From positions 15,438,001-15,502,000 of the forward strand of contig JBHGNT010000004.1 of the NCBI GenBank assembly GCA_043228905.1: a DNA stretch of 64,000 nucleotides, given 5' to 3'. The notes below the pieces were generated by a model that did no database searches, had not been told where the DNA came from, and saw nothing but the letters and a program-made list of their open reading frames with translations. Within the stretch, counting starts at the first letter, position 1, and the number at the start of each line of letters is the position of its first letter. Positions 18,191 to 64,000 of the stretch are shown in pieces. The translations under genes were made by a program, and so were the position numbers. The DNA comes from Azolla caroliniana. Taxonomy: Eukaryota; Plantae; Polypodiophyta.

Positions 18191-20030
18191 TGTCGTGAAG
18201 ATTTTCGGCAATGGTGTGAAAATTGCAAGGAATGTCCAAAATCGAGTGTGGTTCTTCACACAAGACATGAAACAATGATAGTGAAGATACTATTTTAGAT
18301 TAGCTTAATATCTTGGTACGGGAAGATGGAGGTCTTCAAGAGCTTCCGAATGTACTTTACTACATGTGAAATGGACAACTTAGTGTCAAGTTATGTGAAT
18401 GTGAAGTTTGAGAAGAAGAAGAGAAAAACAAAATTGTGAGATGTCCCACTAGATAGGACAACATCAGGATGTAAGAATATATAAGTAGAGCCATATATTT
18501 TATAATTCATCTAAGTGCTAGGAGCACAGAAGGGTTGGGTTGTATAACTTGGACGAATGGATGTGGCCAAGTTATTCAAATAGTCTCGGTTTTGGACGGA
18601 GCCGGAACCGGACGGACGGACGGCAACAGAGCCAGAACCGACACCGGCACCGGACGGCAACGGAACCGGAACCGGAACCGGATAGACCGGATCATCGAGT
18701 CGGATGCGGACCGGATAGACGAATCGATCGGATAAGTTGATCGCAAAGATTTCGGTGTGAAACGAACAAAATATCTAGACTAAAAAACCTAGTAAAAGTT
18801 TGTATATAAAGGGATGCAAGCAAAGCTTGAACCTTGCACCTCCAAGATAGGAGGCAATAGACTTACCACTAGGCTTAGTCATTTCCTTACAAATGTTTTT
18901 TCTATCATTATACTTTTACATGTAAATTCTCATATTAGAGCTTGATTGAGTGACATGGTTATCATGCATCACATGTAATACATGAGCGCCAAATGGCAAA
19001 CATGCATCACATGCATTCCATGCATTGTATGCATGTCTTGTACCCTCACATGCATCATATGCATGGGGGCATCTATAAAAGAGTGCATGAAGAAGAAAAA
19101 CGGGAGCGATGTATTAATCAAGAAATTAAAAGTAAGAAATTCGTTATCCAATTGATGTATCAATCTTGTTCTTCAAATCTAAAGTCAAGAGTTCAATCTT
19201 AATCTCTCTCAATCCAAAGTCAAGCGTTCTATCTTATCTCAATCTCTCTCTCTCTTTCAATCTATCTTAATTCCTTTCTCGCTAAAGCTATTGCAAACTT
19301 CGAGTCCTTCCGGTCCAGAACCCCAGCGGTTCCACCTCACGATCCGCACGTAGTGACGGATCTTCATGACATAATTAAGTGGTGAACCCGACGTGAAAGA
19401 GGCGGCAGGAAGGATCAAATCGAGGATCAACCGATACTTGGAGATGGCATTCTCAAGCAATCAAGCGAGAGAGTTCGAAAGGATGATGTTGATCGTCAAA
19501 CAAATGATGAGATCTCGAAACAACGATGCAAGCGTGGAGAAGGTTGTCGACTGTGTCGTTGAGCTCAAGGGTCAATTTGAAGGAAGGAAAATTACGAAGT
19601 TCCTTGATGCATACAAAAGGGAGATGAATCAGAGGGACGTGTCTCAAGCACGTCAAATCACAAGTTTCAAGAGAGTGGTCGCCAACAACATCCAAAGGTG
19701 CATCATCGAGCTTCAAGAAAGGAAGACAACGTGGCCGGAATTCGAGAAAGAGATATTAGCGGAGTTCGCAATGGAAGATTTGTCGAGGATGACTCGACAT
19801 GTCTTGATGAAGTGGATAGAGAAGAAGAATAAGAAGATGAGCGCTTCGAGGGTGTACGACAAGTTCGACCAGATGTATAGTCGACTCCCTGCCATAGACC
19901 AAGTGCTACTTCAGGAGGACAAAACTTTGTACTTCCTAAAGGCTGTGGATATGAAGGATAGACGAGAACTGGGTACTCTCCTTGAAGATGATACCCAAGT
20001 GAACGGGCTTGTGGCGGACTGGGTTGCAAA
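18191..20030 (+). mobile_element. 5'-half of a tRNA-Trp-primed Ty3/gypsy element (LTR, PBS, truncated gag)
   Basis: LTR TGTCGTGAAG at 18191 to TTCATGACA at 19371; PBS TGGTGAACCCGACGTGAA 19380-19397; gag ORF 19393-20058 closely matches 59259-61288. Confidence 0.9.
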
Positions 20031-37698: not shown

Positions 37699-39637
37699 TG
37701 TCGTAAAGCCATTTACGAGTGAAAAAATGGAAAGAACCCGCGATCTTTATCTCTCCGAATCCGACCTCCTCCTCGACCAGTCTTTATCCACAAGTTGAGA
37801 GGGCATCTTGCTCCACACCCTCTCCCGTGGTACTGTGGTACCGTCCTTTGGCCTCCGCATGGGCCACATCCGTCTTGTCCGGAAGGCCGACTAGCTCCGA
37901 GTCTCCGGACTCCGACCGCGTGCCAGATCTCTCCTCCTCTTCGAGCATCGCCTTCAGAGCCTCGTACACTTCCCGAACTAGGGCCTCGACGTCGAGCTTC
38001 GTTGGTCCTTCTTGTTGCGTGCCCACCTCCTGTTCTGATGACGCGTCGTCACGCGTTATCTTCCCTTGCCCTTTCGCGGACCGCTCCTCATCCAACCGCC
38101 GGCATACCCATTCGACTTCCGACCAGTCCTCAGTAAGGCCATTCGCTCCGTCGTCGTCTTCAAGCTCAATTCCGATGGCCTCCCGTTCCGCTCAGTCGAT
38201 CAACCTAACGAACAATAGGACTTTGTCCACCCCCACCAGTCTTTGTTCTCGCTTTGGGAGCTAAGTAAAGCGCCGCTCGAACTCCCGGAACGCCTTCGTT
38301 GCGCCCTGGTGGGTCTTCACCGATGCAATCCACTGGTCGAAGTCACGCCGTCCCCGACTCTTCGGCCGTCCACCGTATGCCTACAGGAGCGCCTCTTCGA
38401 AGGCCTCCCACGAACTATGAGCTTATCGAAGCTCCTTTACTTCCGCGTGCATATAGACGGCGACGGCCCAACAGAAGAATTCCAGCCTCAACGCCTCGTC
38501 CATGCCTCGCACATCCATTTCCGCGTTGTAGGCTTCCAAGTAGAATGGGACTTTGTCCCCGTTGAAACAGTTGACTCTTTCGACCACTCGCTCAATAACT
38601 TGTTGCGTCGCTTCTCGTCTCATCGTCACTAGTCCAAACTCCATCACCACTTTGGCCAACATCTCTGCGAAGTCTTCATCTTCCAACTCCATCTTCTCTT
38701 GCCGCCCTTCACGTCGGGTTCACTAAAGATATCGCGAAATCCGCGGGTACGTGTTGGATCTGGGTGGGACTACCGGGGTCTTGGACCGGGGAGAGATGGG
38801 TTTCCGGAAGGTCGAGCTCACTGGAGCCGGATATGCCGTCGAGACACCAGTCGGAGCAGTTTCGGATGCAACCTGGAGATAACCGATCCGGACGTGTCTT
38901 GGAATACGACCGAGACGCGTAGAGGGAGAGCACGCGCGTACACGCACCCACTGGCCCTTCGTAGCCGTGTTTATAGAAGGCCCGAAGGACTTAAGTCTAT
39001 ATATTTATACACATATTAATAAGTACACAGACTACAGTCCGGTTCACCGTGCTCACATGCACGCTCACACACACACACACACATATACACTAGGAAGAGG
39101 AAAACCCCGACACACCAAACCGAACACCAACGCTTTGCATAGAAAACACACAGAAGTTTATATATATATTCATACAAGACAAAGAAATACAACTCTGACC
39201 TCGAGCCAGAGTAAGGTAGATTAGGTTACAACAACGGTCTACTGCCAAGCCGCCGATCAGGGAGCTCTCGGGCTCGTCGCGCCGAGCGGGGTCTTGCATA
39301 GGAGATAGAGCAGAAGCGAAACCCACCCCTTAGGACATACGAGCTCCAAACCGGACTAAACCCTTGGACCTAAGTGGTATACCCTCCTAACTCAGAATGG
39401 GCAACCCCTCTACAAGGGACCCTCCCTTCCTTTTATAGCACAAGGAGGGAGGTGCGTAACAATGTGGGATAAATCCCGTATTGCATGGGATTCTCTGTCC
39501 CAACTTAACTCCTATTCGGCGCCATAAAGGCACCCCATTATCTTACACGTGTATACAAGGGTGAGTGCTCACCCCGCACCTCGCTGATATTCCCATTAGC
39601 CTTGGTTTTCTCACTATGGTCGTGAATCTCCACGACA
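37699..39637 (-). mobile_element. tRNA-Trp-primed gag-only gypsy derivative (5' LTR ~38730-39637, PBS, gag fragments)
   Basis: PBS ttcacgtcgggttcacta at 38708-38725; LTR ends CACGACA on plus; ORFs 38423-38692 and 37784-38095 are homologous to 21090-22325. Confidence 0.8.
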
Positions 39638-40827
39638 ACGTTATATCCAATTTTGGAGTTTGCTTATAACAACTCCAAGCATATGTCGACGGGATATAGT
39701 CCTTTTATGTTGATGTATGGTTTTTCAGCCACGAGCCCCAATTGATGTTAACATACATCATGATGAGTTGCGAAGTATGCAAAACATTCTTCGGGATATG
39801 CAAGATATTTTGCATATTGCACGAGATAATATAAAAACAGTTTAAGATAGAGTGTGTTTTTATGCCGATCATAATAGGCAACCTCGTGTATTCAACCCTG
39901 GGCAGAAAGTATTTCTACTTGTACCTCACAATTCTAAGACATTGTCTACGGGTAAGTACGCTAAGTTAGCCCCACAGTTTTGTGGAACTTTTACAGTTCT
40001 CAAACGCATTGGTTCATCAGCCTATCGTCTCACTCTTCTTGATGGTGTTGAAATCCATCCAGTTTTTCATGTAAGTCGTCTAAAAGAACTTCTAGGTTCT
40101 TGCGACAATACAATGACAACTGAAACTCTGGTTACTTTTGAAGAATTAGCTTCTAAACCACATGTACTAGAAAGAATTCTCGATGTTGTTAAAACAAAAA
40201 AATTGTGTTGTAAAATAATCTGAGAATTTAAAATAAAATGGATGAATAAGACTATAAAAGATGCCACATGGAAACACGAAAATACTCTTAGAACTAACTT
40301 CCTTAACTTTCCATTGCAAAAGTGCAATTTTTTAAAGAGGGGGAGTATGTTATGGACACATTATCGACTACATCGAGACTCAAGCACATTATCGACTACG
40401 TCGAGACACATTTGACACATTATAGACTACATCGAGACTCTGACATTGTGGTGGGTCAACTCTTGTAGCGAGCGCGCCAACACCAATAATGACTCGACGC
40501 CACGATGGTGGTATGGGATGCCGATCAAGGCTCAAGGTCGTCTCCATCCCTTCGCTTAGGGGTGGTCGGGTGGATCGGCACCCTTCTTTCTCTCTCTCCT
40601 TTCTATCTATCTATTATTGATATCCTTATCTCATGCTTACTTTAGATGTAAGCTCTAACAAAAGATGTAAGGTTCTTGGTATTTGAGTTGCATGGCCACG
40701 ATGGGTACTCGGTAGGTACATCGGGTGTTTTTGAACTCGTCTTGAATTACTGGGAAGCCACGACTGGCGTCAAGGCACTATGCGTGGAGGTGCTTGGTGA
40801 ATGGGGTGCATGCCATCTAATGTAACA
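39638..40827 (+). mobile_element. Chromovirus Ty3/gypsy 3' end: integrase C-terminus, chromodomain, PPT, LTR
   Basis: KLAPQFCGTF...IHPVFHVSRLK; ERILD...FKIKW...DATW; PPT aaagagggggag; LTR TGTTATGG at 40348 to TGTAACA at ~40827, containing three ~23-bp repeats. Confidence 0.85.
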
Positions 40828-45502: not shown

Positions 45503-47621
45503 TGTTGAAATGTATGTGCGGAAGCAATAGAAAACAAAAAATAGAAAACAGGTTTAATGGAGAGCTTTACAGTACGCGGGAGAGACAGAGAGAGTAGAAC
45601 GTTTTAATCTATTACGAAACAATAATAGTTCTCTGTACATGAAACGTGCTCAACATCACTATTTATACAAGTCCTGAGAGGACTAACAGAAGTACTGCGT
45701 ACTTCAATGCTCACTCGAGTGTCTGGCACTGACTACGAGACTATTAACTCCCAAGTAGTCTAACTGCTACTAGGCTTCCGGTTACTGATGGATCCAGCTA
45801 ACCGGCTCCCCAGCTCACCGGCTCACTTGCTCACTAGGTCACCGATCCGGCTCATCCTTCCGGATGCCAATCCGGCTCAGGCTTATTCAGCCGATCTGGA
45901 TCCGGTTGAGCTTGCCACTCAACACTCCCCCTCAAGCTCAACTTGAGGTCCGGTTGTAGTGTCAACGTATGTGGCAACCGGTCCTTCTACCCGGCTCCTT
46001 CTAGCGTCACTCCAGCTCGCTTGCGCTCCTAGTTCGGTCCGGTCCCATTTGCCGCGACCCTTCTGTTCCTGCGCACCTCGACCTCCTCGGTCGGCTTGTC
46101 TGCTCAACAGGCCCAATTAAGCTTCCTTGCTGTTGTGACTTCGACTCTTGCCGATTCGCCGATCCCTTCGTGTAGACTTTCGCTGCCTTCTTGTCCTCTT
46201 GGCCTTGAATTGATCCGGTTCTTCAGAATCCTTCTGTAGAACTGAATCGATTGTCTCTGATTCGTTCTAGCTCTTGTCCGAATCGGTTGCTCCCGATTCG
46301 TCTTCCGGTTCCAGGCCCTTCACCACATCGGACCATGTCCGGGTCTTGGCCTTCTTCTTCCGGTCGGCTCTGTCCTTCTTGACTCTGGCTCCGCTGCCGC
46401 TTGTTCCGACTTGTTCGGATGTGTCAAATTCCTTTGTCGACTTGGCTCCTTTCTTCTTCTTGTCTCTCCCCTTGTCGGTTCTTCCCTCATCAGCGCAGTC
46501 AACAGTCTCTTTGCCTTTGCTCGTTCCGGTGGTGTCTTTGCCCATTCTCCCCCTCAAGTGTGGCACGTTGAGATGCTGAACACCAAACATTTCGGTGAAG
46601 TGCTGCAACTTGTCCGATCTGAGTGGTTTGGTGAAGATGTCGGCAACTTGCCGATCCGTATGAACATGCCGAAGTTCGACTTCACCGCTCAGGACACGCT
46701 CACGCAAGAAGTGGTAGTGCAGTTCAATGTGCTTTGTGCGAGCATGGAATACAGGGTTCTTAGCGAGCTACATGCTACTTATGTTATCGCAATAGATTAG
46801 GATCGGGGTCGGCACCTCAATCCGCAGTTCTTGTAGCAGTCGCCGAAGCCAAATGGCTTCACAGGTGGCAATGGTAGCGCCCCGGTACTCAGCCTCAGTG
46901 CTCGAAAGGGCCACTGTTGGCTGCTTTTTGCTGCTCCACGCAACAGCCACGCTCCCAAGGGAAACATATAGCCGGAGGTGGATCGGCGATCCGATGCATC
47001 GCCGGCCCAGTCGACATTAGTGTAGCCAACTAGCTCTTCGGTTATACCGTGCCGGTATAACAGTCCCCGTTCCTTCGTGCCGCTCACATATTGCAAAATT
47101 CGATGCGCGCACTGAAGATGTTCTACTGTCGGCTTTTGCATGAATTGGCTAATCACACCGACCGGATAGCTGACGTTGTCGTGAAGATCCGTCACTACGC
47201 GCGGATCGTGAGGCGGAACCGCCGGGGTTCTGGACCGGAAGGATTCAAAGTTGATACAAGCTTTGGCGAGAAAGTACTTAAGATAGATTGGGAAAGAGAG
47301 AAGTTGAGATTAAACGATTGAGAAAGATTGATTGAACTTTTATCTTTGGATTTAAGAAACAAGTTACACCATCAATTTGATAACGAATTTCTTCTTCTTA
47401 ATTTCATAATAAAAACCGTTTTTTCTCTCCCCCCTTCCCTCTTTTATAGATGCTCTCATGCATATGATGCATGTGAGGGTACAAGACATGCATAAATTGC
47501 ATGTTTGCCATTTGGCGCTTAAGTATTACATGTGGTGCATGATAACCATGTCACTCATTTTAGCTCTCATGTATGAGAATTTACATGTAAAAGTACAATG
47601 ATAGAAATATAATTTCAACTA

Positions 47622-47693
47622 AATAGCATGGCTTAATGGTAAGCCAATTGACTCCTAACTTGGAGGTGCAAGGTTTGAATCCTTACTTGCCCT
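47622..47693 (+). other. tRNA-like cassette in LTR U3 (antisense to the element)
   Basis: TGGCTTAATGGTAAGCC D-arm/A-box; CTCCTAA loop; AAGG-TTTGAAT-CCTT T-arm/B-box. Second copy at 61779-61850. Confidence 0.65.
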
Positions 47694-48931
47694 CCTTGTA
47701 TATGTAAATATGTATATATATTTATATATTTATTTATCTAATCGCCGGACGCTAGTTCGCCGGATACCATCGTCGGTTACTGGTGCATCGCCGGTTACCG
47801 GTGCCGGATGCCATCGCCGGATCACCGGCTCCATCGCCGGTCCGGTTTTGGTTGGCCAAAACCCTTTACGAGTAGCTAGCCCACCTTCACTCTTAGTTCA
47901 AGTTACCTTGAACTCTCTATGCTCCACACATAGACACAAAGATAATATCTTTTGCTCCACCTTATATATGATGAGAGCTGTATTTGTCGTGCCTATGTGG
48001 GATATCTCACAATTTTCTCTTTTCCTTTCACAAACTTTATACCCTCATATCTTGACATTTAGTTGTCCGTTGTCGAGTTTTTACGCAAGTGCGTGTGGAA
48101 TCGAGGCGGGACCGCGGGGGTCTCGAACCGAAGAGCAAGCGAGGGAGGAGAAAGAGAGAGAACCGGCTACGCAGGACCGGGAATACACAGGGACACGGCC
48201 CTTCAGCACGGAGAACGCGAACGAACACCGACACAGACAGATGCGAATGACTAAATATATATATCAAGAATGGCTAACACGACTACAACCCTCGATGGGG
48301 CACAGGTTGGTTACAACCGAGCAGGCCGGCGAACAGATGCCGATGCCTGTTCACTTCGACGCACAAGGGGGTAGCCGGTCGGAGGTGCTGCCGGAAGCAC
48401 TCGGGCGTTCCTCGAGACAGCGCAAGCCTCCTCGGAACCCTGCACAGAAAGCTATGGAGCTCAAGAAGGAAGGAGACAGAGAGAGAAGCGTCCAGAAACG
48501 GTCCGGCAGCACTTCGTCCTCTCTGCGCCAGCCCCCGCAACAGCTCTTTCCCCGCTCTTATATAGTCCGACGAGCAGGCCTTCATGTCAGCTTTATTCCC
48601 TGTCCCTTTCGAACAGGGATCCGCTCCGTTCTTCACGCATCCGCGTAGTTACGCCGCCGACTCGTGCCGTCCTTTAGCTCGCGCGCGCGCTCGAAAGGAT
48701 TGTTCGCGCGGTCTTTGTCTCCACTTGTGTTAGGGCCCGTTCCCGCCGACTATCCTCCTAATTCGCTTCTACGTACAACTCGGAGCGTGCGCGCGTGAAG
48801 AACCGGTTCCCACGCCTTGGTGCGCCCGATTCCTCTTGTGGGCGGTTTTCTTCACGACATCCGCCCCCACCTAACCGCGCATCCACCGGCATGCGCCAAA
48901 TTAAGTTGGCACGGAGAAAACCGGCCCGCCT

Positions 48932-51900
48932 TTACTCTTCGCCTGCCGGCCCTTCCTCGGCCTCGGATCGGTCGTCGCTGCTGTCCAGGAGAATCGGGTC
49001 GGGTTCGTCGTCGTGCCGCTTCTTGAAAGCTTTGATCCTCTTCCCGGCCACGGGTATCGCTATTCTCGTACCGTCGAGTTCCGCCAGGTGATACGTCCCG
49101 TTGTCGTTGGCGCTCTGTACCGTGTACGGCCCGAACCATCTCCGTGCGAACTTCCTTGTTGCTCGGTGCTGGTTGTCGAGGCTGCTGTCGTAGACGAGCA
49201 CCCAGTCACCTTCGTCGATTTTCTTCGGTCGTAGCCGGTGCGTTCGGTCGAACCGGGCTTTGTTCTTCGTCCTCGCCACCCGGAGCTTCTCCGTAGCCAG
49301 TGCCACGTCCTCCGGTCTCCGCTCGAGCTGTCGTATACGTGCGGCCAACAACTCCTCCCGGCTCATCTCGTCCCGCCAGTCGACCGTTGCCCACGAGGAG
49401 ATCGTTCGTTCAATCGGCATGATCGGCTTCTGGCCGAACATGAGCTCCGTCGGCATGTACCCGGTTACCGAACTGTGCGTGGTCCGGTCTGCCCACAAAG
49501 CATAAGGTAGAAGTCGCGGCCAGTTGCCGACTTGGCCTCCGCATGCCCGAACCAGCGCCTTAACGATCGGCCCGTGTCCGCGCTCCACCTTTCCATTCGC
49601 CTCCGGGTTGTACGCTGTGGTGAGCGAGAGTTTGACTCCAAGCCGGTCGAACAGCTCCGCGGCCTCTTCGGCGTCCAACTCCCCTCGGTCAGCCACGATC
49701 TTCCCGACGCACCCGTACCGGCATATCACGTCCTCGACTAGGAACCGACACACGGCCGCGGTCGTCTTGTTCTGAAGGGCTCGGCCTTCCACCTGGTTCG
49801 TCAGGTCTTCCCGCGCTAGGACCAGATACCGCATCTGTCCTACCCCCATCGGCATCGTCACCAGATCTACCATCCATTTGAAGTGGATAGTCGGAGGGTA
49901 CGTAGGGTGAAGCCCGTCCCGGTGTCGGACTATCGAGTGCATCTGACAACTCTCGCAAGTTGACACGAACCGATGCACGTCCCGGTACAATCCCGGCCAC
50001 CAGTACTTTCCCTTCAGCTTCTCAAACGTCGCCCACGTTCCACGGTGTCCAGCCCAAGGGCCGTCGTGGTAGGCCGCCAGTAGCTCCTCCTGTACTTCCT
50101 TCATCGCCACCACTCGGAGCGGGACGCCGTCCCTCTTCTTCGGGTGCTTCCATAGATGCCCATCTCGGAGAAAGAATCGATATGCTTTCTTCCGGATCCG
50201 GTTGGCCTCGTCCTTCGTCCATGACGCATCGGGCGTCATTGTCTTCAAAAACCCGCCGATCTGCAGCCACTCCCCGTCGTACTTGCTCGCGTCGAACTCG
50301 TTAAGCGCCGGAGTGCTCATCCCGTCGGTCGTTATGTATGCCGCCTCGAAGAAATCCACGCCGACTTCTTCGTCTTCCGAAACCATGCCGCCCTCGTCGT
50401 CGAACCTCGCCCTCGAAAGCATGTCGGCCATGGCGTTGTCTTTCCCGGAAATGTGTCGTATTTCCGGGTCCAGGGACTTGATGTACGCTATCCACCTGAG
50501 CATCGCCAGGTCCGGAGTCGCGCATCCGGAAACCATACCGAGAATCGGCAGGCAATCCGTCTCGATGATCACTTCCGTCCCTATCAGGTAGTCTTTGTCG
50601 GCCTTAACCGCCGAAACAATACCCCAGAGTTCGCGTTTAACCTGGGCGTATCCTCGCTGCCGTTCACTGAGGACTTTCGCGCCGAATCGGATCGGAAACC
50701 GATTGCCGTCCTCGTCTTCCTGGTTCACGACCCATCCGATCCCGGTCGAACTGGTATCCACCGTTATGAATACCGGGGTACCCTTCCCGTAAACCGCCTT
50801 CCGGATTGCCGGTGCCGTTGCAAGGGCCTCTTTCAGCTTCCGGACCGATTCCGCGTGCTTGTCTAGCCATTCGAACCTTCGCCCCTTTTTCAGCAACCCG
50901 TACAGCGGCTCCGCGAGGTGTGCGTAATGCGGGATCCATATGTGGTAGAACGCGCATGCCCCCAGGAATCTCCGTACTTCCGTGACCGAGCTGCAGTCGG
51001 GCTTCATCGCGGAGATGGCTTCTACCTTTGCCGGAGACGGTTTCCGGCCATATGGTCCGCACAGGTGTCCGACCACCATGATTTCTGACTGCCCGAAGGC
51101 CGACTTCTCCCCGGAGAAGGTGAGTCTCGCATCCTCTAGCCTTTGCAGCACCTTCTCGCAGTCGTCGATGTGCGTCGCCACGAATCGCCGGCATCCGTCC
51201 GGCCCGATCGTCTCGTCCTTTTCTTCCACCGGGCATCCCTTGATCGGGATGTCGTCCAGAAACGGCATGGTGATGTCCGGGATACAGTCCCTCAGAACCT
51301 TGTTCATCGCATTCACCATGTGGGCCACCGAGTTGGTCCCTCCTTGCGGCAGTGTACACATCCGAACTAGGCCGAGGGGAGTTCGCATCGTCGTAATGTC
51401 TCTGCTCTCCACGGCTAGCTGGAACTGGTCGTACCCTGAGTATAGATCCCCGACCGAGTAAATTGACCTTCCGGCGAAGGCCTCCGCGAACTCGTCTATG
51501 GTCGGTCCGATCCCTGCGTTCCGAATGGTCACTCGATTGACCGGCTGCAGGTCCTGGATGAAGCGCAACGAACCGTTTTTCTTCGGTACCGTAAACCAGC
51601 GGTTTGAATACGGGGCGCTCGATGGCTCGAGAATGCCCATATCAACCTTCTGCCTCAGCAGCTCCATCAACTTCGGGATGTGAGCTCTCGGAACCGGGAT
51701 TGGCTTGAGATTCCATGGTACATGCGGTACCGTGAATATCACCATCGGCTCCACGATCCTCGGGTCAACGCACCCGATTTCCTCCGGCGAGAATGCGAAG
51801 GCTTTCCCGTGCCTTCCGAGCATTCTCCGAAACCGGTCTTCCTCCGCCGGCAGTAGGAACCCGCCCCCACCGATTTTGAGCTCTCGGAGCGTCCCGTCAG

Positions 51901-52160
51901 TGAAGGTGTGCCCTATGCAGGCCGGATCTCGTAGACTAGGGTCCGATGCAACCCCTTTGATTCTCGACGCGCTGTCCTCCGGTAAGGGTGCCGCTACTGG
52001 CCTTACCTTCCGGTCCACAGTCTTGTACTTGGTGTTTACGTGGGCCGTCCGAACTGACTCGAGCCCTCGACCGAAGTCCGCGATGACTTCGTACATCTCC
52101 TCGGAACACACCGGTATCGTCCGGTCTTCGTTAAGGCCTTCTTCGACTACCTTTCCCAGC
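48932..52160 (-). CDS. Gypsy Pol (RT-RNase H-integrase), open for >1050 codons
   Basis: LPQGG, FLDD, RNase H (TVDTS, ETDC), HHCC, ADRGE, GPY; no chromodomain. Confidence 0.92.
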
Positions 52161-52408
52161 TCCCAAGGTGTCGTCGAAGGAGACTGCCTCCACGGCTCCG
52201 TTGATCCCTTCGTCAGGGCCGAGAACTCCGCACGCCCGAAGTCTCCCCTCCGTCCTTGTTTTCTCTCGGCCGGTGATGCCGACCATCGTGCATGCTCCGC
52301 TGTCGGAGAAGCAAAATTTCCTACCTAGTGTACACGGTTTTATCGTACAGATGTGGGGTTTTTCCGGAGCATCCGGACTGTCGCGGCCCCACGCCTTGGC
52401 AGTCCTCT

Positions 52409-54535
52409 CTAAAAATCCTCTCGGTTTTCGGAACCGAGGGAATCGCGGTTACGTTCGTGGTTCGGCCTTACCGTCAGAAACTGGACCGAATGGCGCCCGT
52501 CTTGGCTTTTGACCCTAGCGTAGGCCGAACCATTGTCCAGCACTTTGGTCTCCATTCGCGCCGCCGTGATGTACGGCTCTCCCAGAATGACCGGATGCGA
52601 AGACGTCTCCTGCACGAAGAAGTGCTGGTCAATCTCGACGTCGCCAATCTTGACTCGCACATCCGGACAGGCCCCGTGCAGTTCCTCGGTGGCGCGCGTT
52701 GCTGCCCTTATTTTCCACCCGTGCTTGGTGTTGATCGGCCATTTGCCCTTCTTATAGAAGTCCATGGACATCAAATTGATCTCCGATCCGTGGTCCACCA
52801 AAGCTATCACCGGTTCCCGGACATCGCCGATCTTCACCGGGGTCTCCGTGGTCGCTCGGGCCCAGTGTGGTCTCGAATAGTGGCTTTCTGCCCACTCGTC
52901 TCCCAGCGCCATGTCGTCTAGGTGCGTCGTCCGCACTTCCACCGGTCTTTCCGGTTCTGTCTCCGTCGACAGCCTCTTCCGTTTCACCAAGTCCACGATG
53001 GAGTCGTGGAACTCCTTCTTGGCGATTCCCAGCACCTCTCGTAACGACAGCTCCACCTTGCTGTCGAGGATCCGTTCCTCCAGGACCTTTCGTAAGTCCG
53101 TGGTCCTTTCTATCTCCGTCCCCAGACGGTACCCGCCCTTCTGGGGTTTATCTTGCGTGCCGGCCCCGCCGGCTTCGTCCCGTCGTGGCCCGGACCGGGT
53201 CTCGTATCGTTGTGAGGGACCGGTCGTCCCAGGTCTCCCCACCCGCTTCTCTTCTACCAGAGCCTCGTAGTTCTGGCAAGCGGCTTCCACGAAGCCCGTC
53301 CTTTCCTCGACCGGGTCGCTCCACCCGGTCATCTCCCGTACCCGTTTCTCCGCACGGTCCGATTCCTCCCCTTTTAGCCTTGCACCGGCAAGGCCTTCCA
53401 GCATCGTCGGCCAGAATCCGGCTTTGCTTTCCCTTCGGGCCTCGCCACCCCCGACTCGAATGCCGGCCGACGCCGAGTAGTGGACGGTTTCCGCGTGCCG
53501 GGCCGCCGCCTCTTCCGTCAACCTTTTCATACCACCTTTTCCGTCGTTTCGGCTCAGGGCCCTTCGGGTGTCGCTGGCATGCACCCGTCCTTCCCACAGG
53601 TACACCACCCCGTTCCTCAGCGCCTCCGCGAAGTCGCCGCAGTCCTTCCGAATGTGGCCGACTTCATCGCACCACATGCACCTGTTTCCTGCCGCCGGCC
53701 GTCGGTCGCGAGCCGGTTCGCCTCCTTCCCTTCGGGCCTGCGCGATTTGGAGGTCCTTTATCGCCTTCGTCAATTCCTCCAGCGCCGCTCCTCCGGTTGA
53801 GCCTCTGACTACGCCGGTCGAAGCCGAACCGGTTTCCAACCACTCCCGGGTCTCTTCCTTGCGCACCTGTGGCGCTGGTTCGAGCTTCCTTGCTGCGACC
53901 GAGCCCGACCCGGTCGCCCCGTTATCCGCCCATTCTCGCCGTTTGTCGAAACGGCCACAGACTTTCTTGACAGCCGCCCAGTCGGTAGTGAGCCCGTCTT
54001 CAGTTTCCAGCAAGAGGCCCACGTGCTCCCGATCCCGCTCGTCGACCGACTTGACAAACAGCAAGACCCGGCTCGTGTCCAGGATGGTTCGGTCGAGCGC
54101 CGAAAGGCGCGCAAAGTTTTCCTCGAACTCCCGGAGGAGCGCCGACGCGTTTCTTCCCTTCCCCGGGGACTCCACCCATTCCATGAACCTTCGCTTCGAA
54201 AGCCGGAGCGCGTCGTCCAGCCCGTATTTCTCTAGGAGCCGACCTTCGAACTTCTCCCAGGTACGGCTCTCCGCCCGCACCTCGAGCACCTCCGCATGGA
54301 TGCTCGGCATTGCCACTCGGGGAAATCCGGCAAGACGCCTTTCTTCCGGAATGTCCCGCATCAGCATCTCTGCACCGTAGGACGCCAAATACTTCGTGGC
54401 ATGCTTCCCATCGAACCGGCCGATCGTGCCGACGACCGCCTCAATAGCTCTGTCGAGGGCACCGGTGCCCTCGCGCGCGTTTACAATCCGATCCACGGCC
54501 GAAGCCATGGCCTCCGCAAGATCCGACCCCCTCAT
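52409..54535 (-). CDS. Gypsy Gag-protease ORF
   Basis: CMWCDEVGHIRKDC zinc knuckle; ALVDHGSEIN protease-like motif; ILGEPY; ends EDF*. Confidence 0.9.
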   Translation of the reverse strand: MRGSDLAEAMASAVDRIVNAREGTGALDRAIEAVVGTIGRFDGKHATKYLASYGAEMLMRDIPEERRLAGFPRVAMPSIHAEVLEVRAESRTWEKFEGRLLEKYGLDDALRLSKRRFMEWVESPGKGRNASALLREFEENFARLSALDRTILDTSRVLLFVKSVDERDREHVGLLLETEDGLTTDWAAVKKVCGRFDKRREWADNGATGSGSVAARKLEPAPQVRKEETREWLETGSASTGVVRGSTGGAALEELTKAIKDLQIAQARREGGEPARDRRPAAGNRCMWCDEVGHIRKDCGDFAEALRNGVVYLWEGRVHASDTRRALSRNDGKGGMKRLTEEAAARHAETVHYSASAGIRVGGGEARRESKAGFWPTMLEGLAGARLKGEESDRAEKRVREMTGWSDPVEERTGFVEAACQNYEALVEEKRVGRPGTTGPSQRYETRSGPRRDEAGGAGTQDKPQKGGYRLGTEIERTTDLRKVLEERILDSKVELSLREVLGIAKKEFHDSIVDLVKRKRLSTETEPERPVEVRTTHLDDMALGDEWAESHYSRPHWARATTETPVKIGDVREPVIALVDHGSEINLMSMDFYKKGKWPINTKHGWKIRAATRATEELHGACPDVRVKIGDVEIDQHFFVQETSSHPVILGEPYITAARMETKVLDNGSAYARVKSQDGRHSVQFLTVRPNHERNRDSLGSENREDF

Positions 54536-55603
54536 CTTCTGCTCTTCTGCCGCCTCTTTCACGTCGGGTTCACCAAAGATGTCGAGTTTTTACGCAAGTG
54601 CGTGTGGAATCGAGGCGGGACCGCGGGGGTCTCGAACCGAAGAGCAAGCGAGGGAGGAGAAAGAGAGAGAACCGGCTACGCAGGACCGGGAATACACAGG
54701 GACACGGCCCTTCAGCACGGAGAACGCGAACGAACACCGACACAGACAGATGCGAATGACTAAATATATATATCAAGAATGGCTAACACGACTACAACCC
54801 TCGATGGGGCACAGGTTGGTTACAACCGAGCAGGCCGGCGAACAGATGCCGATGCCTGTTCACTTCGACGCACAAGGGGGTAGCCGGTCGGAGGTGCTGC
54901 CGGAAGCACTCGGGCGTTCCTCGAGACAGCGCAAGCCTCCTCGGAACCCTGCACAGAAAGCTATGGAGCTCAAGAAGGAAGGAGACAGAGAGAGAAGCGT
55001 CCAGAAACGGTCCGGCAGCACTTCGTCCTCTCTGCGCCAGCCCCCGCAACAGCTCTTTCCCCGCTCTTATATAGTCCGACGAGCAGGCCTTCATGTCAGC
55101 TTTATTCCCTGTCCCTTTCGAACAGGGATCCGCTCCGTTCTTCACGCATCCGCGTAGTTACGCCGCCGACTCGTGCCGTCCTTTAGCTCGCGCGCGCGCT
55201 CGAAAGGATTGTTCGCGCGGTCTTTGTCTCCACTTGTGTTAGGGCCCGTTCCCGCCGACTATCCTCCTAATTCGCTTCTACGTACAACTCGGAGCGTGCG
55301 CGCGTGAAGAACCGGTTCCCACGCCTTGGTGCGCCCGATTCCTCTTGTGGGCGGTTTTCTTCACGACACCGTTTCTCGTGTAATAAAGTGCATTCGAAAC
55401 CTCCATCATTTTGTACTTAGATATTAAATCTATTTAAAATGTTATCTTCACAATTATTGTACTATGTGATTCATACTCGATTTCGTACGTTTTATGGGAT
55501 TTTCACACTATTGCAGAAAATCTTCACGACATGCACCCCCACCAAACCGCACGTCCTCCGGTACGTGCCAAGAAGAGAAGAAGTGAGATTTTGGCTACGA
55601 TGA

Positions 55604-58600
55604 TCAATTAGATTCCTCCATGTCTTCATTTTCATCCGGCCTATTATGTTCATCGTCGAGGTAATCGAGGTCAGGATCCTTGTCTTGTCTTTTCTTGAAA
55701 AGCTTTACTCTTTTTCCCGCAATGGGTACGGCCAACCTTGATCCGTTTAGTTCCGCAAGGTGGTATGTGGCATTATCGTTGGCACTTGTCACCACATACG
55801 GCCCGAACCATCTTCTTGCGAACTTCCTTGTTGTACTGTGTTGATTGTCAAGGGTGCTGTCGTAAACCAAAACCCAATCCCCTTCTTCAATCTTCTTGGG
55901 ACGAAGTCGATGCGTGTTGTCGAACCGAACTTCGTTCTTTACTCGGGCTGCCTTCATCATCTTTCGCGCTTTTTCTAAATCTTCAGGTCTTCTTTCAAGT
56001 TGCCTTATCCGCGCCGCTAATAACTCTTCTCGGCTCATCTCGTTCTCCCACGGTATCGCTACCCATGAGGCGATCGTCCTTTCGATGGGCATAATCGGCT
56101 TTTGTCCATACATAAGCTCCGTCGGCATATACCTTGTCACCGAGCTATGTGTCGTTCTATCGGCCCATAAGGCATAGGGTAATAGTCGTGGCCAATTCCC
56201 GACTCGACCGTTGCATGCCCGTACGATGGCTTTAACGATAGGTCCATGCCCTCGCTCGATCTTCCCATTTGCTTCCGGATTGTAGGCAGTCGTGAGGGAG
56301 AGCTTCACGCCTAGTCTTTCGAAGAGCTCCGTCGCTTCGTGCGCATCCAACTCCCCTCGGTCGGCCACTATCTTCCCTACACATCCATATCGGCAAACAA
56401 CATCTTCAAGTAGAAATTTGCAAACGGCTGAAGTCGTCTTATTTGTCAAGGCTCGTCCTTCCACTTGATTTGTCAAGTCTTCCCTTGCCAACGCTAAGTA
56501 GTTCATTTGTCCCACTCCCATTGGCATCGAGACTAGATCCACCATCCATTTGAAGTGTATGGTGAGTGGGTATGTCGGCTTTAACTCATCACGATGACGT
56601 ATATTTGAATATACTTGGCAAGTTTCGCATGTGGACACGAAATGGAGTACATCTTTGTACATGCTTGGCCACCAGTACTTCTCCTTCAACTTTTCGAACG
56701 TTGCCCATGTTCCTCTATGACCTGCCCAAGCACTCTCGTGGAATTCGGTCATCAGCGTCTCTTGCTCTTCTTTCTTTACCACCACTCGTCGTGGTATTCC
56801 TGTCCTTCTTTTTGGATGTCGCCAAAGGAATCCTCCCTTCAAGAAGTATTGGTAAGCTTTCTTTCGGATTCATAGGGCCTCCTCCTTTGTCAATGAAGCA
56901 TCTGTCGTCAATGTTCTTAGGAATCTACCGATGAGTAACCACTCTCCTTCGTACTCGTTCTCGTTGAAGGCGTGGAGGGTTTGCGTGTCCTGGTCTTCCG
57001 CCGACAATCAAGCCATCTTGAAGAAGTCGAGGGCGACATCTTAATCTTCCGAAACCATGTTACTTCCGTTTGAAAATCTTGCCCTCGACAGCATGTCAGC
57101 CATGGCGTTCTTCTTCTCTGCAATGTGACGGATCTCTGGGTTTAAAGACTTGATGTAGGCGATCCACCTTAGCATAGCAAGATCTGGGGTCGCACATCCC
57201 GAGACCATTCCGAGAATTGGGAGACAATCTGTCTCTATTATCACTTCTGACCCGATCAAGTAATCTTTGTCCGTCTTCACTGCCGACACAATACCCCAAA
57301 GTTCCCGCTTGACTTGGGCATATCTTTGTTGCCGTTCGCTGAGAACCTTTGCTCCGAACCGGACGGCATATCGCGCATTATCTTCACCTTCTTGATTGAT
57401 GACCCACCTGATTCCGGTTGGGCTCGTATCTACAGTCACGTAAATTGGCTTCCCTTCGGCATAGTCGGCCTTCCTTAGTGCCGGAGCTTCAAGAAGCAGT
57501 TTCTTTAATCTTCGCATCGCCTTTGTGTGCTCGTCTCGCCATTTGAACTTTATTCTTTTCTTTAGTAGTCCATATAACGGTTCGACGACATGAGCGTAGT
57601 GAGGAATCCATATATGATAAAACGCGCACGCTCCAAGGAACCTTCGAACCACCGTTTGGTTTTTGCATTCTTCTTTCATGTCTTGGATTGCGTTCACTTT
57701 GGATGGCGAGGGCTTCCGGCCGTATGCTCCACACAAGTGACCTACCACCAAGATCTCCGGTTGCCGGAATGCGGATTTTTCTCCCGAAAATGTCAAATTC
57801 GCATCTTCGAGCCTTTGAAGCACCTTCTCGCAATCTTTCATATGATCCACAACGAACTTTCTACAACCTTCCTTATCTTTCGATTCATCTTTCTCCTCAT
57901 CCGAACATCCTTTTATTGGAATATCATCCAAGAATGGCATCGTGATGTCCGGAATGCAATCCTTCAAGACTTTATTCATGGCATTCACCATATGAGCCAC
58001 CGAGTTCGTTGCGCCTTGGGGTAAGGTACACATCCGCACAAGCCCGATCGGAGTCCTCATGGTTGTGATGTCCCGAATGTCGATCGCCAATTGGAATTGG
58101 TCATATCCGGAGTAGAGATCGCCAATGGAGTAGATGGACCGGCCCGCAAACGCTTCGGCAAATTCGTCCACGCTCGGACCGATTCCGGCATTTCGAATTG
58201 TCACCTTGTTGACGGGTTGAAGATCTTGGATGAATCGCAATGATCCATTCTTCTCCGGCACCGTGAACCACCTATTGGAATAAGGAGCATTCGACGGTTC
58301 TAGAATTCCCATACTCACCTTCTCCTTTAAGAGCTCGATCAGCTTCGGAAGGTGTGCTCTCGGTACCAGTATCGGTTTCAAATTCCAAGACACATGAGGC
58401 ACCGTGAAGATCACCATCGGCTCTATAACCTTTGGGTCGGCGCATCCGATTTCTCGTGGGAAGAATGCGAAAGCCTTCCCATGTCTCTCAAGCATATCGC
58501 GAAATATTCGCTCCTCTTCAGGGAGAAGGAAATCCTCCTTTCCAACTCGTAGCTTCCCCTTCGTCTCTTTGGTGAAGACATGACCTATCTTCTTCGGATC

Positions 58601-59092
58601 TCTTAAGCTTGGATCGTTAGCGACTTCCTTCATCTTTTGCCAGCTATCTTCTGGTAGCGGAACCGCAACTGGCTTGATCTTCTTATCCACCGTTTTATAT
58701 TTCGTGTTGATGTCAGCTTCCTTCATCGAGATGCCACGACGGTATTCATCGATGATAGCGTACATGTTGATGGAGTTAACCGAAATCACGCGTTGGTTGT
58801 GAAGATAGCTCAAGTCCAGGACGTCCTCGATTTCGCCGATGGTGTCGTTAAATGAGGCTTCTTCCATAATATGAGTCACGAACTCTCCTTCTTCTATTAT
58901 ATTCTCTTCTTTCAGCATCTTCTCGAATTCTTGTATCCGGCGCTTGTGCTTCTTGTCGGGTAGTACTAGTTTACATGCGCCACTAGGTGTGACACATGTT
59001 GCTTCTCCTTGCAATCCATGCACTCTTCTTTCTTGTGGGGTCTTGTGATTGCTCGGACTATTTGTGCCCCATGCTTCAATAGTCCGCTCTAA
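55604..59092 (-). pseudogene. Element B pol (RT-RH-INT), disrupted near 56850-57040
   Basis: ORFs 57041-59023 and 55604-56842 are highly similar to element A Pol. Confidence 0.9.
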
Positions 59093-61288
59093 AAATCCGA
59101 GGATTCGCCTCCGAGACTATCTCGATTCCTTTCATGATTGGCTCGCACTGTTAGGAATTGGACTGATCTTTGGTTGTCAAGACTCTTTATTCGTGCGAAG
59201 GCTGCTCCATTATCGAACACTTTGGTCTCCATCCGAGATGATGTGATATAAGGTTGCCCTAGGATGACAGGATGCGACGCCGATTCTTGTACGAAGAAGT
59301 GTTGATCCATCTCCACATCCCCGATCGTGACTTTGACATTGGGACAAGCTCCGTACAAATCCTCCGTAGACTTTTTGCCGCGCGAATCTTCCATCCGTGG
59401 TTTGTAATTGGCCATCTTCCTTTTTTGTAGAAGTCGGTTGACATGAGGTTGATCTCCGAGCCGTGGTCGATCAAGGCTACCACGGTTTCTTTCTTCTCCC
59501 CGATCTTCACCGGCGTCTCCGTTGTCGCTCGTGCCCAATGAGGTCGAGTGTAGTGGCTGTCCACCATATCTTCATCGATTTCGTCTCTTGCCATCGTTAT
59601 GACATTCGTTTTTGCTTTTTGCGGCTTCTCTTCTTCCTCGTCCGATTGTTGTCTCTTTCTCTTTACAAGGTCCACGATCGTGTCATGGAACTCCTTCTTC
59701 GTAATGCCAAGCAATTCCCTCAAGGACAAAGTTACGTGGCTATCAAGAACTCGTTCTTCGAGAATCTTCTTTAGGTCCGTCGTCTGCTCTATGTCTGACC
59801 TTAGCTTGTAGGTAGGTATAGTCCTTGTCCTCCGAGCGGGGTCTTCGACACCAACCTTCACGGGCCGAACCGTTTCTTCAACTCGTATGCTCGGCTCCCC
59901 TTTTCGGCTTGATTCTCGTTCCTCCGTTTGTAAAGGTCGACTCGTCTCCGCATCGTCCTTCTTTTTCGCATTCCTTGTTTCATGTCTTTTTGATGGCCCT
60001 TGCTCTTCTATTCTCTTTCTCTTTTCTTCGACGAACACCTCGTGGTTGTCGCACATCACCTCTACGAGTATGGTGTTGTCGTCCACCGGATCCGACCACC
60101 CGGTTATGCTTTGCATGCTTCGGTCCGCAAGCTCTACCTCGTTCGATGTGATTTTTCCCTTCTTCTCATATTCGAGAACGGAAGTCCAAAACTTTGCTCC
60201 CGCTCTAGCAGCTTCAGTCTTGTCTTTCCCGACTCTTATTCCGGCCGACGCAGCATAGTGCATCGCATCCACATGAGTCGCATCGACATCCTCCATAGAT
60301 TTCTTCATTCCTCCTCTTCCGAAATTCACCCGTAGGGGTCTTCTAGTCTCGCTTGAGCAGATCATGTTGTCCTCTATGTATACAATATTTTGTCGAATCG
60401 CCTCTCGAAGGCTCACACAATCCCTTCTCATGTGGTCCATGCTATCGCACCACACGCATCTAAAGGGTTCTTTTCCCTTAGGGCCCCGACGATTCATGTT
60501 GGCTAGTGTGACCTTCTCGAACTTCTTCGCTAGCTCTTCAATGATGTCGTCATCAATCTTCTTTTCTTCCACGTTACTTTCTCTTGGCGGCTCAGCTACT
60601 TTCGGCGGTCTTGCTTTCTCCGTGGTAGTCGGTCCCGTCAAGTCGGTGTCATCAACCCATTGGCGATGCTTGTCAAGCCCATTGCATGCCCACTTCACCG
60701 CGATCCAGTCCGCTACGAGCCCATTTGCTTGGGTATCATCTTCGAGAAGAGTCCCCAACTCCCGTCTATCCTTTATGTCCACGGCCTTCAAGAAGTACAA
60801 AGTCTTGTCCTCTTCAAGCAACACTTGGTCCGTGTTGGGGAGACGACTAAACATCTGGTCGAATTCGTCGTACACCCTCGAGACGCTCATCTTCTTATTC
60901 TTCTTCTCTATCCACTTCATCAGGGCATGTCGGGTCATCCTCGTTGAGTCTTCAGTCACGAACTCCACTAGTATCGTTTTCTCGAACTCGGACCATGTTG
61001 TCTTACCTTCTTGAAGCTCGATGACGCGTCTTTGGATGTTGTTGGCGACAACTCTCTTGAAGCTTGCGATTTGACGTGCCTCGGACACGTCCCTCTGATT
61101 CATCTCCCTTCTATATGCATCAAGGAACTTCGTAACGTTCCTTCCATCGAATTGGCGTCGAGCTCTACGACACGATCGACAACCTTCTCCACGCTCGCGT
61201 CATTGTCCCGAGATCTCATCATTTGCTCGACGATTAGCATCATCCTTTCGAGCTCTCCCGCTTGGTTGCTTGAGGACGCCATCTCCAA
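59089..61288 (-). pseudogene. Element B gag-protease with two frameshifts
   Basis: CVWCDSMDHMRRDC; ALIDHGSEIN; ends SDF*. Confidence 0.9.
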
Positions 61289-64000
61289 GTATTAATCTCG
61301 ACTTGATCCTTCCTACCGCCTCTTTCACGTCGGGTTCACCACTATATTATGTTGTGAAGATTCGTCACTACGCGCGGATCGTGAGGCAGAACCGCCGGGG
61401 TTCTGGACCGGAAGGATTCAAAGTTGATACAAGCTTTGGCGAGATTGGGAAAGAGAGAAGTTGAGATTAAACGATTGAGAAAGATTGATTGAACTTTTAT
61501 CTTTGGATTTAAGAAACAAGTTACACCATCAATTTGATAACGAATTTCTTCTTCTTAATTTCATAATAAAAACCGTTTTTTCTCTCCCCCCTTCCCTCTT
61601 TTATAGATGCTCTCATGCATATGATGCATGTGAGGGTACAAGACATGCATAAATTGCATGTTTGCCATTTGGCGCTTAAGTATTACATGTGGTGCATGAT
61701 AACCATGTCACTCATTTTAGCTCTCATGTATGAGAATTTACATGTAAAAGTACAATGATAGAAATATAATTTCAACTAAATAGCATGGCTTAATGGTAAG
61801 CCAATTGACTCCTAACTTGGAGGTGCAAGGTTTGAATCCTTACTTGCCCTCCTTGTATATGTAAATATGTATATATATTTATATATTTATTTATCTAATC
61901 GCCGGACGCTAGTTCGCCGGATACCATCGTCGGTTACTGGTGCATCGCCGGTTACCGGTGCCGGATGCCATCGCCGGATCACCGGCTCCATCGCCGGTCC
62001 GGTTTTGGTTGGCCAAAACCCTTTACGAGTAGCTAGCCCACCTTCACTCTTAGTTCAAGTTACCTTGAACTCTCTATGCTCCACACATAGACACAAAGAT
62101 AATATCTTTTGCTCCACCTTATATATGATGAGAGCTGTATTTGTCGTGCCTATGTGGGATATCTCACAATTTTCTCTTTTCCTTTCACAAACTTTATACC
62201 CTCATATCTTGACATTTAGTTGTCCGTTTCTCGTGTAATAAAGTGCATTCGAAACCTCCATCATTTTGTACTTAGATATTAAGTCTATTTAAAATGTTAT
62301 CTTCACAATTATTGTACTATGTGATTCATACTCGATTTCGTACGTTTTATGGGATTTTCACACTATTGCAGAAAATCTTCACGACAACGTCGGGTCGGGT
62401 GATGGTCAAATATATAAGGCTTCCGACAATTTGTTGGAACCGTTTCTCATCGCAGGCCGGTCCGGAGTTGGGACAAAGCTTCTTGTTTCGGTCCAAGGGT
62501 GTTGGGACAGGTCGGCATTCTGTCATGCCAAACTTGTACAGCATATTCAACACATAGTGTCTTTGTGAGAGCAATATGCCATCGGGGGTTCGGATCACCT
62601 CGATCCCAAGGAAATAGTGAAGGTCCCCTAGGTCCTTCATCTCAAATGCATCCAATAGCTGGGACATGACTCGACTGATTTCATCGAGTCCGAGTCCGGT
62701 GATGACCAGATCATCAACATACAACAAGATGCAAACCAGACCGTCTAGTCCTTGCCGGATGAACAATGAAGAGTCAGATTTGGAGGCCACAAACCCCATC
62801 TTACGCAACCGGTGCGTGCTCTTTGAATTCCAAGCTCGGGGGGCTTGCTTCAGGCCATAAAGTGACTTCTTCAGCCAACATATCGCCGACTTGTTCATCT
62901 CCGACTAAAAACCAAGGGGTTGGGTCATAAAGACCTCTTCTTTAAGATCACCTTGAAGAAATGTATTCTTCATGTCCATTTCATGAAGATGCCGCCCCCT
63001 TGCCGCAGCAACCGCTAGCACCACACGAACTGTCGTCATCTTCGCTACCGGAGCGAAGGTCTCGTCGTAGTTTATTCCGTGGGTTTGCGCGTATCCCTTC
63101 GCCACTAACCAAGCCTTGTATCGGTTAACTGAACCGTCGGCGTTGTACTTTACCTTGTACACGCACTTGCATCCGATCAGTTTCAGTGACGGGGAGGGTC
63201 AACCAGGTCCCATGTGTCGTTGGCATCAAGTGCCCGCATCTCTTCCTGCATAGCGGCATGCCAATTTGCGTCCCTTACCGCTTCTCTATAGCTCTCTGGT
63301 TCACGCACTTCCGCCACCTTGGTCATGTACGCATAGTGATGCACCATGTACTCATTGTACCCGTGCCGCTTAACATGTTCCTTTTGCCAGGTTGATCGGC
63401 ATAACCCATTGTTACCCGGTTTGGGGCCCTTCTTGGCCGGGTCAGTCTTTGTTGCTGAAGAACCACCATTTTCCTTTCCGGAGTCGGATCCGCTCCGATC
63501 TGACTCAACATTACCGGTTTCATAATCCGACATCTTCGTCTTCCCCTTCTCTTTGCACGTGAACCGTCTCCTCGGTTCCTTACACGGGGAGAGCAGGACA
63601 GAGTCTGCACTACTCGCTGGTTCCTCATCTGACTGGTCGGATTGACCCAGTCTCTCGTTCGGCTCACTCAACTGAAACGATTCCGGACTCTCTTCTTGAG
63701 TCCCGGATTCATCATCTTCTACTTGGGCCGGTTCAGGCTCACTAGCCTCATCTTCTGACATCGGGTTGGGGTCGGAAGTCGGAGTTGGTAAGGAATACCA
63801 TGATGCTGTTTCATTGAACTCGACATCGCGGCTAACTCAGATCTACTTCGTCTCGGGGTTATAACACTTATACCCCCTTTGCTCATGTGAGTAGCCGACG
63901 AGGATGCACTTCTCTGATTTTGCATCCAGCTTCCTCCGCTTCTCATCCGGCACATGCACATATGCTATGCTGCCGAATATCCGAAGGTGTCTCAGATTCG

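Follow-up and report, generated by a model that had tools for sequence, protein, structure and literature searches.

A candidate pseudoknot-stimulated programmed -1 frameshift signal between protease and reverse transcriptase in Phygy-type Ty3/gypsy retrotransposons

A slippery heptamer, a closely following stop codon and a covarying two-stem structure are conserved between the Gag-protease (Gag-PR) ORF and the reverse transcriptase (RT), RNase H (RH) and integrase (IN) ORF of Phygy-type retrotransposons from Azolla caroliniana and related elements, and this signal very probably represents, as far as sequence comparison can tell, a pseudoknot-stimulated programmed -1 ribosomal frameshift. The canonical features of such sites, namely an in-phase heptamer of the X_XXY_YYZ type within an ORF overlap, a downstream ORF in the -1 frame and a 3' structure, are all present. 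A frameshift between protease and RT had been put forward as a candidate in the initial annotation and is supported by the frame of Pol, the in-phase heptamer and the covariation, from which we infer the slip itself.

The window, that is the whole 64,000-nt stretch of A. caroliniana DNA analyzed, contains on its minus strand the junction of a retrotransposon termed element B (Table 1). The heptamer, the stop, the 9-bp stem and the TGGGG/CCCCA complementarity were all found where the initial annotation had placed them, and the -1 frame, which it had described as open from the slip site into Pol, extends from 59116 to 57041 (691 codons, RT and RNase H), starting 25 nt ahead of the ORF1 stop. Over the 38 nt 3' of the heptamer, a folding window chosen after the fact, the lowest-energy structure is the stem-1 hairpin (-13.3 kcal/mol, z -4.35, 0 of 200 shuffles as good). 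Stem 2 of this copy, taken alone, is within chance (p 0.09), and its support comes from covariation among relatives rather than from the element B copy itself. The complementary segments for both stems of the H-type pseudoknot suggested for element B are present, but four unpaired bases (CACA) separate the two stems, so that the knot is less compact than textbook H-types. The whole signal spans ~70 nt and the local knot ~55 nt. An Rfam scan of 58800-59400 returned no frameshift family and one chance match (E 7.6).

It is proposed that most ribosomes would terminate after ...Asp-Phe, releasing Gag-PR, while a minority would pause at the knot 5-6 nt downstream of the heptamer, their P- and A-site tRNAs shifting from GAU UUU to GGA UUU, and would proceed as ...DFLERT... 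into Pol. An excess of Gag-PR over Pol would be set from one RNA, and the protease would release RT and integrase. That the heptamer belongs to known shift sites, as the initial annotation had stated, agrees with the available text of a review, in which the G_GA variant is listed, G_GA occurs in dianthoviruses and G_GAU_UUU in an umbravirus, and spacers of 5-9 nt are standard (PMC5009743). The nearby stop may itself help the shift, an adjacent stop having been reported to aid it at the umbravirus G_GAU_UUU site (PMC5009743).

Table 1. Features of elements A and B and of their junction signals in the window.
Feature	Position	Strand	Remarks
Element B	47177..62386	-	~7.9 kb without the insert
Element B LTRs	5' LTR 61350-62386; 3' LTR 47177-48070 plus 55373-55531	-	4 mismatches / ~1,040 aligned LTR bases
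Element B target duplication ACGT	47173-47176 and 62387-62390		
Element B primer-binding site	61324..61341	-	18 nt, complementary to tRNA-Trp(CCA) 3' end
Element B ORF1: Gag + retropepsin-type protease (predicted)	59089..61199	-	Frame changes inside protease
Element B ORF2, -1 frame	55604..59116	-	Linker, RT, RNase H 57041-59116; integrase 55604-56869; in-frame stop between
Slippery heptamer G_GAT_TTT	59092..59098	-	Codons Asp, Phe; ORF1 phase
Gag-protease stop TAG	59089..59091	-	First 3 bases of the 5-nt spacer
Spacer TAGAG, 5 nt	59091-59087	-	Between heptamer and stem 1
Stem 1 + 15-nt loop	59054..59086	-	Arms 59086-59078 / 59062-59054, perfect 9 bp
Stem 2, 5' arm TGGGG	59067..59071	-	Within stem-1 loop
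Stem 2, 3' arm CCCCA	59036..59040	-	Complementary to TGGGG, after 13-nt loop
Element A, younger relative nested in the 3' LTR of B	48071..55368	-	7.3 kb
Element A LTRs	48071-48859 and 54580-55368	-	Zero mismatches between LTRs; target duplication CCGT
Element A primer site	54558-54575	-	tRNA-Trp, same as B
Second signal copy, element A	52353..52418	-	Same heptamer 52418-52412; other stem-1 sequence; stem 2 GTGGGG/CCCCAC

Element B has the Gypsy order PR-RT-RH-IN. Pfam scans gave a DUF4100 match slightly below its cut-off in the Gag part of ORF1 and returned no chromodomain and no extra RNase H in the elements. The primer-site stretch is carried at the 3' end by 4 of 4 host tRNA-Trp(CCA) genes checked. 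The LTR end and the primer site are 8 nt apart in element B (61342-61349) and 4 nt apart in element A, the usual gap being 0-3 nt. The tRNA-Trp 3'-end pattern has 63 matches in the genome, with clusters at C8 17.80-17.82 Mb, C16 4.99-5.11 Mb and C5 10.11 Mb; the C8 cluster has a period of ~1.2 kb, and the four confirmed tRNA-Trp genes are elsewhere. In the available text of the 2019 classification by Neumann et al., Phygy is described by an NCGN 4-bp duplication, a tRNA-Trp primer, a size of 7.7-10 kb and an ORF organization given as 'ND' (PMC6317226). Elements A and B share the NCGN duplication (ACGT in B, CCGT in A), the tRNA-Trp primer site, a size of ~8 kb and homologues in Physcomitrium patens, element A with its 7.3 kb falling slightly below the Phygy size range (PMC6317226). 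By duplication, primer, size and domain content, elements A and B are Phygy-type Ty3/gypsy elements. Protein database searches returned many P. patens homologues at about 47-69% identity, and the named homologues are from Physcomitrium patens, Riccia sorocarpa and Adiantum nelumboides.

The Gag-PR-RT-RH-IN product envisaged by the initial annotation would hold for the family but not for the element B copy, which cannot make the fusion because ORF1 changes frame within the protease (ORFs 59259-61199 and 59089-59571), because RNase H and integrase are separated by an in-frame stop, and because a second element splits the 3' LTR. The window copy of that second element, A, is likewise broken, by a frame break between the junction and RT; a first impression that its junction runs in frame was discarded as the break of one copy, since nearly all family-A loci have RT in -1 (see below). 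Other LTR sequences occur in the window. A third, truncated relative of B (~85% identical; 18830-20030, plus strand) retains an LTR, a primer site (19380-19397) and the start of gag, with neither protease nor junction found. An LTR-end motif with an ACGT flank at 39631-39641 resembles the right end of B and possibly marks a solo LTR or another member of the family. A different LTR element, presumably copia-like by its RT motifs, is present in related copies at 62347-64000, 1-4000 and 12000-15800, in both orientations.

The assignment of the ORF1 end to a protease combines weak Pfam matches (16 of 34 members at E<=1, all under cut-off) with a fold search, for which the domain was folded from element A, homologous to B. 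The last 163 residues of element A ORF1 gave a predicted fold (mean pLDDT 79) resembling Ddi1 and retroviral proteases, with a best E of 1.6e-7 and 136 matches at E<=0.001; when solved structures were searched by sequence, using the ORF1 alignment, nothing significant emerged. On the predicted fold, ORF1 ends in a retropepsin-type protease, and the ORF break therefore falls at the PR|RT boundary. The active site reads D-H-G (ALIDHGSEIN; 59477-59448 and 52804-52775, minus strand), invariant in 34 of 34 aligned homologues, the usual motif being D-S/T-G.

The relative frames of protease and RT were compared in two sets of loci. In the best 30 family-B and best 30 family-A genomic loci, the -1 frame holds RT in 29/30 and 29/30, respectively; these loci were picked by likeness to the junction, which makes identity there circular and leaves only the frames as informative. 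Circularity is lower in the second set, obtained by protein-based searches (80 metagenome and 30 genomic loci). Altogether 112 loci were examined and the protease end was readable in 106, none of which runs in frame into RT, all stopping within 60 codons, so that a single PR-RT frame, which the initial annotation had named as refuting evidence, is not encountered. After removal of 25 of the 106 junctions, in which contig ends or decay leave no stop-free path to RT, 81 loci, chosen blind to the heptamer, comprise 79 in -1, 2 in -2/+1 and none in frame. Clustered at 85% identity, they form 30 families, with Pol in -1 for 28 and in -2/+1 for 2, although many metagenome families may stem from few host species. 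In families with a path to RT, the ORFs overlap by 10-121 nt. No relative was found in the viral contigs searched. Two short contigs in cyanobacterial and Streptomyces assemblies (L195, L196) encode the retrotransposon and are likely eukaryotic contamination; L195 belongs to a distant group and keeps the heptamer and a -1 frame of 818 codons.

Conservation of the heptamer, also called for, was observed as an in-phase G_G[A/G/U]U_UU[U/C] in 29 of 30 families, the exception being a copy with a deletion. Among related families, which are not independent trials, GAT is used at 24/24 Asp sites (69% background), the heptamer codons are preceded by G in 28/28 families (25% background), and TTT is used in 25/28 (42% background). 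The site stays slippery where the amino acids change (GF, VF). Judging by these codon choices, the heptamer is kept beyond protein-coding need. The stop after the heptamer is TAG, TAA or TGA among relatives. In several branches (L112, L127, L134, L136 and 25 database proteins), the ORF1 stop is 5 codons past the heptamer, within the stem-1 region, instead of directly behind the heptamer. The 120 database homologues divide into 70 ending [DGN]F, 25 ending [DGN]F plus five residues, 2 ending VF plus one residue, and 23 that are long-tailed gene models, truncated or unmatched.

Both stems covary on aligned relatives and on a protein tree, as the proposed check on stem conservation and covariation required. 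The alignment comprises 28 junction rows without internal gaps, leaving out L093 (stem deletion) and L143 (heptamer deleted), and 11 stem-1 and 6 stem-2 pairs were scored. Pairing occurs in 82.6% of cells, a value reached by 0 of 500 shuffles and compared with 39-44% for slid partners, over which the structure is favoured since it was read from the same sequences as tested. Both sides change in 14 of 17 pairs (5 of 6 in stem 2). Stem 1 starts 5-8 nt past the heptamer. On the protein tree, from which L093 and L117 were left out because their RT is too short, co-changes on the same branches number 17 for stem 1, against 5.7 +/- 2.1 for mismatched partners, and 13 for stem 2, against 6.1 +/- 1.3; neither count is reached by any of 2,000 sampled derangements, of which stem 2 has only 265 possible. 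With the tree ignored, stem 2 pairs better with its own partner than with swapped partners, examples being TGGGG/CCCCA, ATGAGGGT/ACCCTCAT, GCGAGA/TCTCGC, GCAGGGA/TCCTTGC and ACAGGG/CCCTGT. Stem 2 was scored in one fixed register, which penalizes rows whose last loop differs in length, and on its own attains p<0.05 in only 11 of the 28 rows. Of the 7 families that were folded, 3 have a stem 1 that is modest by itself (z -1.1 to -1.9).

The two families with Pol in the -2/+1 frame, L111 and L120, form a derived branch. Their ORF1 ends CAG GUU UUU (G/U)AC UAG, giving the site AG_GUU_UUU. Over at least 815 codons their Pol, comprising RT, RNase H and integrase, meets no stop; the -1 frame ends immediately in L111 and after no more than 6 codons in L120. 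The two are sisters (100/100 support, 87% protein identity), and the other 27 tree rows, the most distant included, are all -1 (midpoint root only); the AG_GUU_UUU branch is, on this tree, of one origin and derived from -1 ancestors. In the Azolla caroliniana genome, the L111 family has 113 pattern matches, against 7 for a control, and more than 80 copies, with the exact site in 81 of the 100 matches listed. In 20 copies fetched, RT is in -2/+1 in 15, in the 0 frame in 3 decayed copies (13-23 stops) and unscorable in 2, and the -1 frame is closed at once in all 20. Of the 19 variants among the matches listed, 12 belong to the family, with RT in -2/+1 in 7 of 11 scorable ones, and 7 are unrelated. 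Seven TAC variants retrieved by pattern, considered as a second -2 family in the genome, were rejected as variants of the first. Among the database members listed, the ending QVFD occurs in four further proteins and QVFY in one more. Behind the site lie a stem 1 of 10 bp and a stem 2 of 8 bp, and the conserved stem core is one base nearer the heptamer than in the -1 families. L135, with G_GUU_UUC at the usual spacing, has Pol in -1, which fits because its A-site codon cannot re-pair at -2.

The shift in the derived branch is probably by -2. A -2 and a +1 shift lead into the same frame and are therefore indistinguishable from DNA, and it is conceivable, if rather unlikely, that most families shift by -1 and that the AG_GUU_UUU branch relies on a +1 shift, on transcriptional slippage or on non-autonomous borrowing of Pol. 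P-site re-pairing is poor after -2, and one of the two families reads UUU_U, permitting +1 re-pairing; however, the larger family reads UUU_G, on which +1 re-pairing of tRNA-Phe is imperfect whereas -2 A-site re-pairing is perfect. Five consecutive U make a rather short run for slippage by a polymerase, which argues against a transcriptional origin, and the long open Pol frame in both families together with their protein identity indicates a Pol under selection, against a borrowed one. Further points against +1 are that the site equals that used for -2 shifting in arteriviruses, down to the immediate -1 stop (PMC4937337, PMC6675879), and that shorter spacers favour -2, as described in the available text for arterivirus and HIV sites (PMC4937337, PMC6675879, PMC5009743).

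For the lineage as a whole, splicing would join Gag-PR to Pol or yield a Pol mRNA in an Ogre-like manner, the U-run and AG serving as 3' splice site. The window junction TTTTTAG would make a good acceptor, but the AG is there in 11 of 28 families only, the rest having TAA, TGA or sense codons, and the ORFs overlap without an intron-sized spacer. As the homologue search could not show fused forms, longer proteins were searched, giving 14 hits with PR and RT in one predicted chain, all of them Riccia sorocarpa gene models (P0174-P0187). These models join both ORFs as splicing would; their joins, however, are scattered over many different points, none keeps the DF end, 7 are without the last protease strand motif, and PR and RT lie 156 to 268 residues apart. 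These fusions, which are the main counter-evidence, probably stem from introns that the gene finder placed across the shift. Splicing would also leave the fixed frame, the fixed phase and the two covarying stems without explanation, and is highly improbable. Just as improbable is expression of Pol by re-initiation or internal initiation past the ORF1 stop, with the structure serving that purpose, packaging or dimerization. Structures near stops can act in termination and re-initiation, and one structure may have several jobs, but the first Pol-frame Met is 0 to 109 codons off the junction at no common position, and neither a slippery heptamer nor a single fixed frame would be needed. Stop-codon readthrough of a Retand-like single stop, or chance decay of a single ORF, has a negligible probability: GAG-PROT:stop:RT is found in Retand and some Ogre elements (PMC6317226) and pseudoknots drive readthrough in MLV too (PMC5580714), but 4-16 stops interrupt the 0 frame within the following 100 codons in 28/28 families, RT is in -1 in nearly all family-A and family-B loci, and 0 of 81 stop-free paths is in the 0 frame, by which readthrough is refuted for the families seen.

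The frameshift reading can be set beside several known systems. The layout had been described as unlike typical plant LTR elements, which is true of the overlap with a slippery site but not of the break at PR|RT, as Ogre and Retand (Tat clade) also break GAG-PROT / RT-RH-INT at this domain boundary (PMC6317226); sharing the boundary implies Gag and protease made together in excess. Ogre has an intron-spliced spacer and Retand a single in-frame stop, whereas the Phygy-type elements have an out-of-frame overlap, a slippery site and a pseudoknot (PMC6317226); neither an intron-sized spacer with a conserved acceptor nor a Retand-type single stop was found at their junctions. The table of 2019, in its available form, gives overlaps at GAG/PROT only (Tcn1, Selgy, SIRE), PROT/RT breaks only as spacer or stop (Ogre, Retand), and no lineage with GAG-PROT overlapping RT-RH-INT as prevailing layout (PMC6317226). 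Plant LTR elements appear in the available text of reviews mostly as single ORFs, with splicing and a few unexplained two-frame +1 cases (PMC5009743, PMC5580714, PMC12786077).

In alpharetroviruses, the protease is encoded with Gag. Rous sarcoma virus, an alpharetrovirus, likewise uses a -1 shift at a heptamer near the ORF1 end (PMC5009743); it differs in heptamer and structure, and no descent is claimed for the plant retrotransposon. The heptamer G_GAU_UUU is shared with pea enation mosaic virus RNA 2, an umbravirus, and plant ribosomes and a stop close behind the site with umbra- and dianthoviruses, whereas pea enation mosaic virus RNA 2, like red clover necrotic mosaic virus, uses a stem-loop with a partner kilobases off rather than a local knot (PMC5009743). 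The derived branch resembles the arterivirus nsp2TF -2/-1 site G_GUU_UUU in the site, a productive -2 frame, an immediate -1 stop and re-pairing in the A site only; stimulation at the arterivirus site comes from a protein complex on a C-rich motif and involves no RNA structure, whereas the derived branch has a predicted pseudoknot inherited from -1 ancestors (PMC4937337, PMC6675879). Its product is an essential polymerase, unlike nsp2TF. By analogy, the branch would at most work like the arterivirus site and is no member of that class, sharing site and frame but not the protein stimulation. Dictyostelium Skipper reportedly has a pro/pol frameshift. Skipper is described with two ORFs and PR in ORF2 in the available text (PMC5006619). 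Related elements use either -2 or -1 for the same job among Trichomonas vaginalis viruses (virus 1 as against viruses 2-4) and among tail-chaperone genes of phages, so that there is precedent for one family changing direction; these are not retroelements, and the available text makes no statement of one pseudoknot kept across the switch (PMC5009743). The -2 cases in that text are phage Mu, arteriviruses and Trichomonas virus 1, with no retroelement (PMC5009743).

A literature search found no report of a frameshift signal in Phygy or moss retrotransposons among the sources accessible, although subscription papers, notes in Repbase, the survey by Gao et al. (2003) and per-element supplements to the 2019 classification could mention one; the word 'frameshift' is absent from the P. 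patens TE paper. The comparisons thus point to a genuine recoding signal, of a known kind and present across the lineage, at a position and in a lineage for which no description was found, with an apparent natural frame change in one branch. Little is established about the ways in which plant LTR retrotransposons produce an excess of Gag over Pol, and the 'ND' of Phygy may now be filled with a specified ~70-nt signal. For bryophyte gene models, false introns are suggested across this junction. The -1 and -2/+1 sister families would provide matched cassettes from nature, in which two outcomes go with one pseudoknot, for relating spacer length to shift direction on plant ribosomes. On balance, we favour the view that an ancient lineage of non-seed plants (moss, liverwort and fern relatives) uses a knot-driven PR/RT frameshift and that one branch passed from -1 to -2 via a one-base-closer pseudoknot and AG_GUU_UUU. 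If true, this would be a natural -2 frameshift, driven by a pseudoknot, through which a retroelement makes an essential polymerase, and evolution would have replayed the rule on spacer length that engineered constructs had revealed.
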